The position numbers and the translations under genes are program-made. This document shows, one piece after another, positions 11,168-12,097 of a stretch of 13,080 nucleotides of DNA; position 1 is the first letter of the stretch; each line of letters begins with the position of its first letter. The DNA is from a virus (lineage: Duplodnaviria; Heunggongvirae; Uroviricota; Caudoviricetes). The stretch is taken from the IMG/VR virus record IMGVR_UViG_2563366976_000005; one strand, given 5' to 3'. The notes beneath the pieces were generated by a model. That model ran no database searches, was not told where the DNA came from, and saw only the letters and a list, made by a program, of their open reading frames with translations.

Positions 11168-12097
11168 ATGGCAAACACTGCTGAGATATTCAATTTTCCA
11201 GTGCCGGATGCGGCACAAAAGGAGCCGCGCGTGGCAGATCTCGATGATGGTTATACGCGCATTGCAAATGAGTTGCTGGAAGCTGTGATGCTGGCCGGAT
11301 TAACACAGCACCAGCTTCTGGTCTTCCTGGCTGTCATGCGCAAAACATATGGCTTTAATAAAAAACTGGATTGGGTGAGCAACGAGCAACTTTCCGAGTT
11401 GACCGGGATATTGCCGCACAAGTGTTCTGCTGCAAAAAGCGTTCTGGTAAAGCGTGGGATTCTTATTCAGAGCGGGCGGAATATCGGCATTAATAATGTG
11501 GTCAGTGAATGGTCAACATTACCCGAATCAGGTAAGAAAAATAAAGTTTACCTGAAAGAGGTAAATTTACCTGAATCAGGTAAGAAAAGTTTACCCAAAT
11601 CAGGTAAAGGCGTTTACCCGAATCAGGTAAACACAAAAGACAAACTAACAAAAGACAATATAAAACCTTTTTCGTCCGAGAATTCTGGCGAATCCTCTGA
11701 CCAACCAGAAAACGATCTTCCTGTGGAGAAACCAGATGCTGCAATTCAGAGCGGCAGCAGGTGGGGGACAGCAGAAGACCTGACCGCCGCAGAGTGGATG
11801 TTTGACATGGTGAAGACCATCGCGCCATCAGCCAGAAAACCGAATTTTGCAGGGTGGGCTAACGATATCCGCCTGATGCGTGAACGTGACGGACGTAACC
11901 ACCGCGACATGTGCGTGCTGTTCCGCTGGGCATGCCAGGACAACTTCTGGTCCGGTAACGTGCTAAGTCCGGCCAAACTCCGCGACAAGTGGACCCAACT
12001 CGAAATCAACCGTAACAAGCAACAGGCTGGCGTGACAGCCGGAAAATCAAAACTCGACCTGACAAACACTGACTGGATTTATGGGGTGGATTTATGA
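11168..12097 (+). CDS. O: Replication initiator O (309 aa), chimeric: non-lambda N-terminal ori-binding domain with lambda-type C-terminal domain
   Basis: Start ATG 11168 (GGGAGG Shine-Dalgarno); MANTAEIFNF...VADLDDGYTRIANELLEA parallels the lambda O N-terminus but diverges, whereas the C-terminal ~110 aa (DLTAAEWMFDMVKTIAPSARKPNFAGWANDIRLMRERDGRNHRDM...TNTDWIYGVDL) matches lambda O as I remember it. ATGA overlap with P. Confidence 0.9.
   Translation: MANTAEIFNFPVPDAAQKEPRVADLDDGYTRIANELLEAVMLAGLTQHQLLVFLAVMRKTYGFNKKLDWVSNEQLSELTGILPHKCSAAKSVLVKRGILIQSGRNIGINNVVSEWSTLPESGKKNKVYLKEVNLPESGKKSLPKSGKGVYPNQVNTKDKLTKDNIKPFSSENSGESSDQPENDLPVEKPDAAIQSGSRWGTAEDLTAAEWMFDMVKTIAPSARKPNFAGWANDIRLMRERDGRNHRDMCVLFRWACQDNFWSGNVLSPAKLRDKWTQLEINRNKQQAGVTAGKSKLDLTNTDWIYGVDL
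11519..11631. repeat. Replication origin iterons (ori) inside O: five direct repeats of a dyad-symmetric ~19-bp unit, followed by an AT-rich stretch
   Basis: Repeats of TTACC(C/T)GAATCAGGTAA starting near 11519, 11547 (degenerate), 11566, 11590 and 11613; the AT-rich segment aacacaaaagacaaactaacaaaagacaatataaaac follows (11630-11666). Same architecture as lambda ori. Confidence 0.8.

Follow-up and report, generated by a model that had tools for sequence, protein, structure and literature searches.

The DNA analyzed here, a stretch of 13,080 nucleotides referred to below as the window, covers the left portion of a lambdoid prophage that sits at the lambda attachment site, adjacent to ybhC. Its genes follow one another in the order int-xis-exo-bet-gam ... 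cI-cro-ydaT-O-P. The repressor is cI-like (S24), the gene at the cro position is cro/YdaS-like and matches YdaS_toxin, as in the Rac prophage, and the cII position is taken by a YdaT-domain gene. The latter gene (10542-11081) codes for 179 aa with a YdaT_toxin domain instead of a lambda-type CII, and is about equal in size to a phi80 gene of 543 nt annotated as "CII decision making protein". Between the recombination genes and the repressor, a small lipoprotein gene is located on the minus strand (8838-9218; 126 aa). Its product is a SEN1984-family lipoprotein by the annotation of the matching genome, and the gene is probably a moron. Gene O, encoding a replication initiator of 309 aa, occupies 11168-12097 on the plus strand. 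It contains an array of five 17-bp iterons and an A-rich block, and is followed by gene P.

Gene P (12094-12771, plus strand) encodes a lambda-type DnaB helicase loader of 225 aa (Pfam Phage_lambda_P, E 8.5e-62), and its start overlaps the stop of O (ATGA). The first-pass annotation had placed a lambda-type P behind O, and this is what is found: the product aligns with residues 1-225 of the 233 of lambda P at 98% identity and matches the PDB entry 8v9t, "Helicase loader", over the same residues. The last 8 of the 233 residues are missing and are replaced by a stop borne by an insertion sequence. This IS3-family element breaks into P at its 3' end, where it completes the TGA stop (12769-12771). 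Its left end lies at ~12770 on the plus strand, and the element runs off the window at 13080. An ORF that starts at 12823 matches Pfam HTH_Tnp_1, and PGAP annotates an "IS3 family transposase, programmed frameshift" in the matching genome. The element is presumably IS629/IS1203-like, with orfA from 12823. The homology of most genomes with the same region ends exactly at 12769, and the insertion at the end of P is shared by just two or three of the complete E. coli genomes covered by the search.

Because P lacks its last 8 residues and the downstream gene ren, beyond the window, carries a frameshift in the matching genome, the replication module may not be firing in this prophage. The module may even be a decaying relic, in which O and the origin look intact but replication has been lost through an insertion sequence that disables P and/or blocks downstream expression. 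The shortened P with the IS3-family element behind it would fit such a relic, as would the ren frameshift, an internal stop in a DNA polymerase theta-like gene of the matching genome, and iteron-array deletions or 5'-truncated copies of O in other genomes. However, O, the iterons, the A-rich block and 225 of the 233 residues of P are intact and show 98-100% identity to alleles of plaque-forming or inducible phages. A relic is therefore plausible enough to be kept in mind, but we lean against it. The question concerns the present activity of the element and not its identity, and a relic would be compatible with the identification of the locus as a lambdoid replication module.

The 309-aa reading frame proposed for O in the first reading is present. 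A Shine-Dalgarno sequence, GGGAGG, is read directly at 11158-11163 on the plus strand, 4 nt 5' of the ATG at 11168, and its GGAG core is kept in six of six aligned phages. The whole start block, GGAG-N5-ATG-nCAAAnAC, does not vary across six phages, with lambda and phi80 among them, whereas the 90 nt on its 5' side are unconserved in this set. An alternative start, the ATG at 11078, would yield a product of 339 aa and is used by PGAP, by the Lambda_4C10 record and by some other phage records. If O began there, coordinates from 11168 would cut off 30 N-terminal residues. In its favor, this ATG shares an ATGA with the stop codon of the upstream ydaT-like gene and is preceded by GGGGG. However, 11078-11150 is unconserved, unlike the invariant block at 11168, and O is annotated from the ATG homologous to 11168 in GZ7, SEN34, lambda and phi80. 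Furthermore, 11088-11165 bears an oop-like antisense unit, a sequence that lies upstream of O in lambda. A start at 11078 is thus unlikely. The start at 11168 is better supported by the alignment, and the 339-aa product probably results from an over-extended start call, which many records have taken over.

The oop-like unit (11088-11193, minus strand) was recognized by a promoter scan, hairpin folding and conservation. A putative pO-like promoter consists of a -35 element, TTGAAT (11193-11188), and an extended -10 element, TGnCATAAT (11165-11173), which overlaps the start codon of O. The -10 element lies within a block conserved with the pO promoter of lambda (compared in PMC3349717), and a hairpin at 11130-11098 has a folding energy of -24.6 kcal/mol with a z value of -3.0. 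From these features we infer that the unit is a positional homologue of lambda pO/oop. A search of Rfam at the gathering threshold gave no family match anywhere in the window.

O is a two-domain protein, and the two domains differ in their relatedness to lambda. Pfam Phage_rep_O (PF04492) matches aa 21-115 over profile positions 1-95 of 95 with an E value of 1.4e-34 and 118.9 bits, against a curated cut-off of 28.7 bits. This region (11228-11512, plus strand) is, by homology, a predicted origin-specific DNA-binding domain of a non-lambda type, showing 49% identity to lambda, 66% to P22 gp18 and 88% to Klebsiella phage GZ7. The C-terminal half (aa 168-309; 11672-12097, plus strand) is lambda-type, with 95-97% nucleotide identity and 96% amino acid identity to lambda, 933W and PhiR12_2. 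It is the putative P-interacting domain, as P binding has been assigned to the C-terminal domain of lambda O (PMC6022878). Consistently with the first reading, in which only the N-terminal half was thought to be diverged, amino acid identity to lambda O is 48% over aa 1-117, 29% over the linker (aa 118-167) and 96% over aa 168-309. A PDB sequence search with O gave no match, so that no structure of the O family was retrieved, and a single-sequence AlphaFold2 model of aa 1-168 was unusable (mean pLDDT 40.6, pTM 0.25).

An O-type origin is taken here as an array of at least four dyad-symmetric iterons of ~17-19 bp, about two helical turns apart, inside the initiator gene. Gene O carries such an array in five copies. 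The 17-bp unit, TTACCYRAAWSAGGTAA, is located at 11519-11535, 11548-11564, 11567-11583, 11591-11607 and 11614-11630, with start-to-start spacings of 29, 19, 24 and 23 bp, and the count of five compares with a mean of 0.00 and a maximum of 0 in 200 dinucleotide-preserving shuffles of the window. Every iteron is an internal dyad, in which 6-8 of the 8 arm positions are complementary. Iterons 1 and 5 have the sequence TTACCCGAATCAGGTAA, iteron 3 (TTACCTGAATCAGGTAA) is a perfect 8/8 dyad, iteron 4 reads TTACCCAAATCAGGTAA, and iteron 2 (TTACCTGAAAGAGGTAA) has the most degenerate center. The first-pass annotation had described five iterons over 11519-11631 with the consensus TTACC(C/T)GAATCAGGTAA. 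The five copies are confirmed, but the array ends at 11630, and the consensus is exact in iterons 1, 3 and 5 but not in iterons 2 and 4.

The last four iterons are spaced by 19, 24 and 23 bp, compared with 20, 24 and 23 bp in lambda, P22 and HK97. Because these four reproduce the canonical spacing, iteron 1 is an extra upstream copy. Its distance of 29 bp from iteron 2 falls outside the usual spacing of 19-24 bp and is the same as that of the homologous copy in GZ7. In Stx phages, extra promoter-proximal iterons, such as the two of 933W, are poorly bound in footprinting (PMC7466680). Given this poor binding and the 29-bp offset of iteron 1, the use of all five iterons is uncertain. The iteron string TTACCYRAAWSAGGTAA was not found by full-text search of the searchable literature. 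The origin of the classical phage 82 has five repeats, and literature searches for a tie between the TTACC..GGTAA iteron type and this phage found nothing.

Rearrangements of the array region are seen in E. coli STEC306, DETEC-E1070 and EDL933 when their sequences are aligned to 11470-11690 of the window. One genome has lost 72 bp in frame between iterons 1 and 4 and retains two iterons, and a 23-bp deletion in one genome fuses iterons 4 and 5 and shifts the reading frame of O. The EDL933 copy of O lacks the first 141 nt.

The array can also be read at the protein level, as a tandem repeat of a low-complexity LPESGKK linker that is kept for its peptide and not as a set of DNA-binding sites. 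The array region encodes a K/S/G/P-rich stretch between the two domains, and the equivalent stretch of lambda O has been described as a flexible linker (PMC6022878). However, the repetitive linker peptide noticed in the first reading, LP(E/K)SGK, is encoded by iterons 1, 3 and 4 only, which are in codon frame 0, whereas iterons 2 and 5 are in frame 2 and give VYLKEVN and VYPNQVN, respectively. Since one 17-bp unit is kept in two codon frames, it is the DNA that is conserved and not the peptide, and selection acts on the DNA. Furthermore, selection on a peptide does not explain the internal dyad of each unit, and the position of the array, its spacing and the flanking A-rich block agree with those of the annotated iterons of lambda. 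A peptide repeat is thus very improbable, and this reading was rejected on the strength of the two codon frames, the dyads and the lambda-like layout of the origin.

Directly to the right of the iterons, an A+T-rich block of 40 bp (11632-11671) has a GC content of 0.30 and a strong A skew, with an AT skew of up to 0.71. This block holds CACAAAAGACA..ACAAAAGA and is the presumed DNA-unwinding element; the equivalent 40-bp A+T-rich region of lambda opens upon O binding (PMC5043065). The CACAAAAGACA..ACAAAAGA block is invariant in eight aligned phages and nearly so in ten, regardless of the class of N-domain, C-domain or loader, and phi80 differs at several positions.

Where the A-rich block ends on its right, the relatedness of O changes abruptly. 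Over 11168-11631, O has a nucleotide identity of ~53-54% to lambda and 933W; from ~11672 on, the value is 95-97%, and the switch occurs within ~20 bp. When identity is calculated in sliding windows of 30 nt, that to lambda is 66-76% in the two windows before the junction and 96% after it. GZ7 shows the reverse: its identity is 78-84% through the N-domain and the iterons and stays high until ~11661, beyond which the sequences are unrelated, and the sliding identity is 93% two windows before the junction, 66% across it and 40% after it. Sliding identity and alignment columns together place the module junction at 11655-11672, with GZ7/SEN34-like sequence on its left and lambda/933W-like sequence on its right. 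Because the junction falls on the right edge of this block, the A-rich element goes with the N-terminal module; judging from the alignment, the whole origin core, namely the iterons and the A-rich block, belongs to that module.

The junction called for in the first reading, where divergence along O was held to be non-uniform, is thus present. It is scarcely credible that O is not mosaic but a uniformly diverged homologue of lambda O with a C-terminus under stronger purifying selection, and this reading was rejected: C-terminal domains in contact with a conserved partner can evolve slowly, but identity to lambda changes between adjacent 30-nt windows as a step and not as a gradient, the step takes in synonymous sites, a mirror step is found in GZ7 at the same position, and in PhiR12_2 a C-domain of 96% identity is joined to a third N-type of only 39% identity.

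The iteron half-sites and the N-domains were compared in a set of ten phages, in which N-domain identity is that of aa 1-117 to the window. Arms of the type TTACC..GGTAA are found in the window, in Lambda_4C10 (N-domain 98%) and in GZ7 (84%). Those of SEN34 are TTAGC..GCTAA (62% overall and 49% over aa 41-117), those of P22 TTTACC..GGTAAA (59%), those of HK97 TTAGCC..GGCTAA (43%), those of lambda and 933W TCCCTC..GAGGGA (47-48%), those of phi80 TTCCCG..CGGGAA (40%), and those of PhiR12_2 TGTCAC..GTGACA (39%). The iteron half-site therefore tracks the type of the N-domain in the ten phages, irrespective of the C-domain or loader that accompanies it. The lambda-type C-domain with P occurs with four N-types, namely those of the window, SEN34, lambda/933W and PhiR12_2, and the N-type of the window occurs both with P (the window and Lambda_4C10) and with a DnaC-type loader (GZ7). 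O thus shows the two marks of a mosaic gene, namely a sharp shift in relatedness at one point and partners that vary independently on either side of it. As had been proposed in the first reading, the N-domain and the iterons travel together: GZ7 has both with an unrelated C-domain, and lambda, 933W and PhiR12_2 present the converse. These sequence relationships indicate that the N-domain, the iterons and the A-rich block are one exchangeable specificity module and that the C-domain and P are another. The word "chimeric" describes O only relative to lambda; the combination itself is a very common natural allele.

The O gene of SEN34 has a second mosaic boundary inside the N-domain, its residues 1-40 being 85% identical to the window and its residues 41-117 only 49%. 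Because the boundary at residue 40 goes with iterons of the TTAGC..GCTAA type, the comparison suggests that the specificity determinants of O are located after residue 40. In Escherichia phage D2 (1411-2432), O is of the window type at its 5' end but lambda-type in the iterons and immediately ahead of them, and two ORFs are annotated for the gene. This O may be a recombinant within the N-domain, or the record may contain a sequencing frameshift.

The locus shares with lambda a two-domain O, an origin inside the gene with dyad iterons of ~18 bp and an A-rich block to their right, the C-domain (96%) and P (98%), the overlap of the O stop with the P start, and a pO/oop-like unit at the 5' end of O. 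It differs from lambda in the N-domain (48% identity), in the arms (TCCCTC/GAGGGA in lambda and TTACC/GGTAA here), in having five iterons instead of four and a YdaT-like gene instead of cII upstream, and in a P without its last 8 residues. GZ7 has the same kind of N-domain (84% aa), five TTACC..GGTAA iterons with the 29/19/24/23 spacing, and the A-rich block; in contrast, its C-terminal domain is unrelated (22%), and its partner is an IstB/DnaC-type AAA+ loader, not P. Among the classical phages, P22 with its gene 18/gene 12 pair has the closest N-domain, together with related arms and an A-rich block. Its four iterons are spaced by 20, 24 and 23 bp with half-sites one base nearer the dyad center, and it differs in having another C-domain and a DnaB-type helicase as the partner. 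The Stx phage 933W is alike in its lambda-type C-domain and P and in having extra promoter-proximal iterons beyond the canonical four, but it has six iterons, and its N-domain and iterons are lambda-type. PhiR12_2 has the C-domain (96%) and P in common with the window and differs in the N-domain and the iterons. Lambda_4C10, 4A7, Perceval, 1W, 3W and the PhiR series (Bievrevirus and relatives) carry the same O allele, with no substantive difference.

Taken together, the locus is, with a high degree of confidence, the replication module of a lambdoid prophage, in which O is a two-domain initiator, the phage origin lies inside its gene and two modules are joined at 11655-11672. In the lambda model, O binds to the iterons, the A+T-rich region opens and the P-DnaB complex is recruited (PMC5043065, PMC6022878). 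By analogy, dimers of the N-terminal Phage_rep_O domain would bind to the five dyad iterons (11519-11630), and the resulting O-iteron nucleoprotein complex would bend the DNA and open the A-rich block (11632-11671) in supercoiled DNA. The lambda-type C-terminal domain of O would then recruit the P-DnaB complex, allowing the host helicase to be loaded. Transcription from the upstream cro/cII-like operon would run through the origin.

In 15 phage records, among them Lambda_4C10, 4A7, Perceval, 1W, 3W and the PhiR series, the entire O gene shows 97.8-99.2% nucleotide identity to that of the window. With a threshold of at least 95% identity over at least 80% of O, the allele is present in 2368 of 5426 complete E. 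coli genomes (~44%), and the N-domain with the iterons alone is found in 2270 complete E. coli genomes. The replication module is thus among the commonest in E. coli prophages, and its O is annotated everywhere as replication protein O. The two-domain organization of O, the type-specific iterons inside its gene and the exchange of origin modules were established decades ago with hybrids of lambda, phi80, 82 and P22. The module described here is an ordinary origin/initiator mosaic of lambda-family prophages and is already known.

The exact allele has been deposited thousands of times, and the finding has little significance beyond correct annotation. It is of modest use in giving an explicit iteron sequence, TTACCYRAAWSAGGTAA in five copies, for a very common type of E. 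coli prophage origin, in placing the junction at the right edge of the A-rich block, and in correcting a widely propagated 339-aa start call. We tentatively raise a further proposal, which we consider rather unlikely to be right: the CACAAAAGACA..ACAAAAGA block would be a preferred point of homologous crossover, and the off-phase fifth iteron, the spacing of which is conserved in GZ7, would be regulatory rather than initiating. If the block were such a crossover point, origin-specificity modules would move between replication modules of the lambda-P, DnaC and DnaB types, and this movement would span host genera, including E. coli, Klebsiella and Salmonella.
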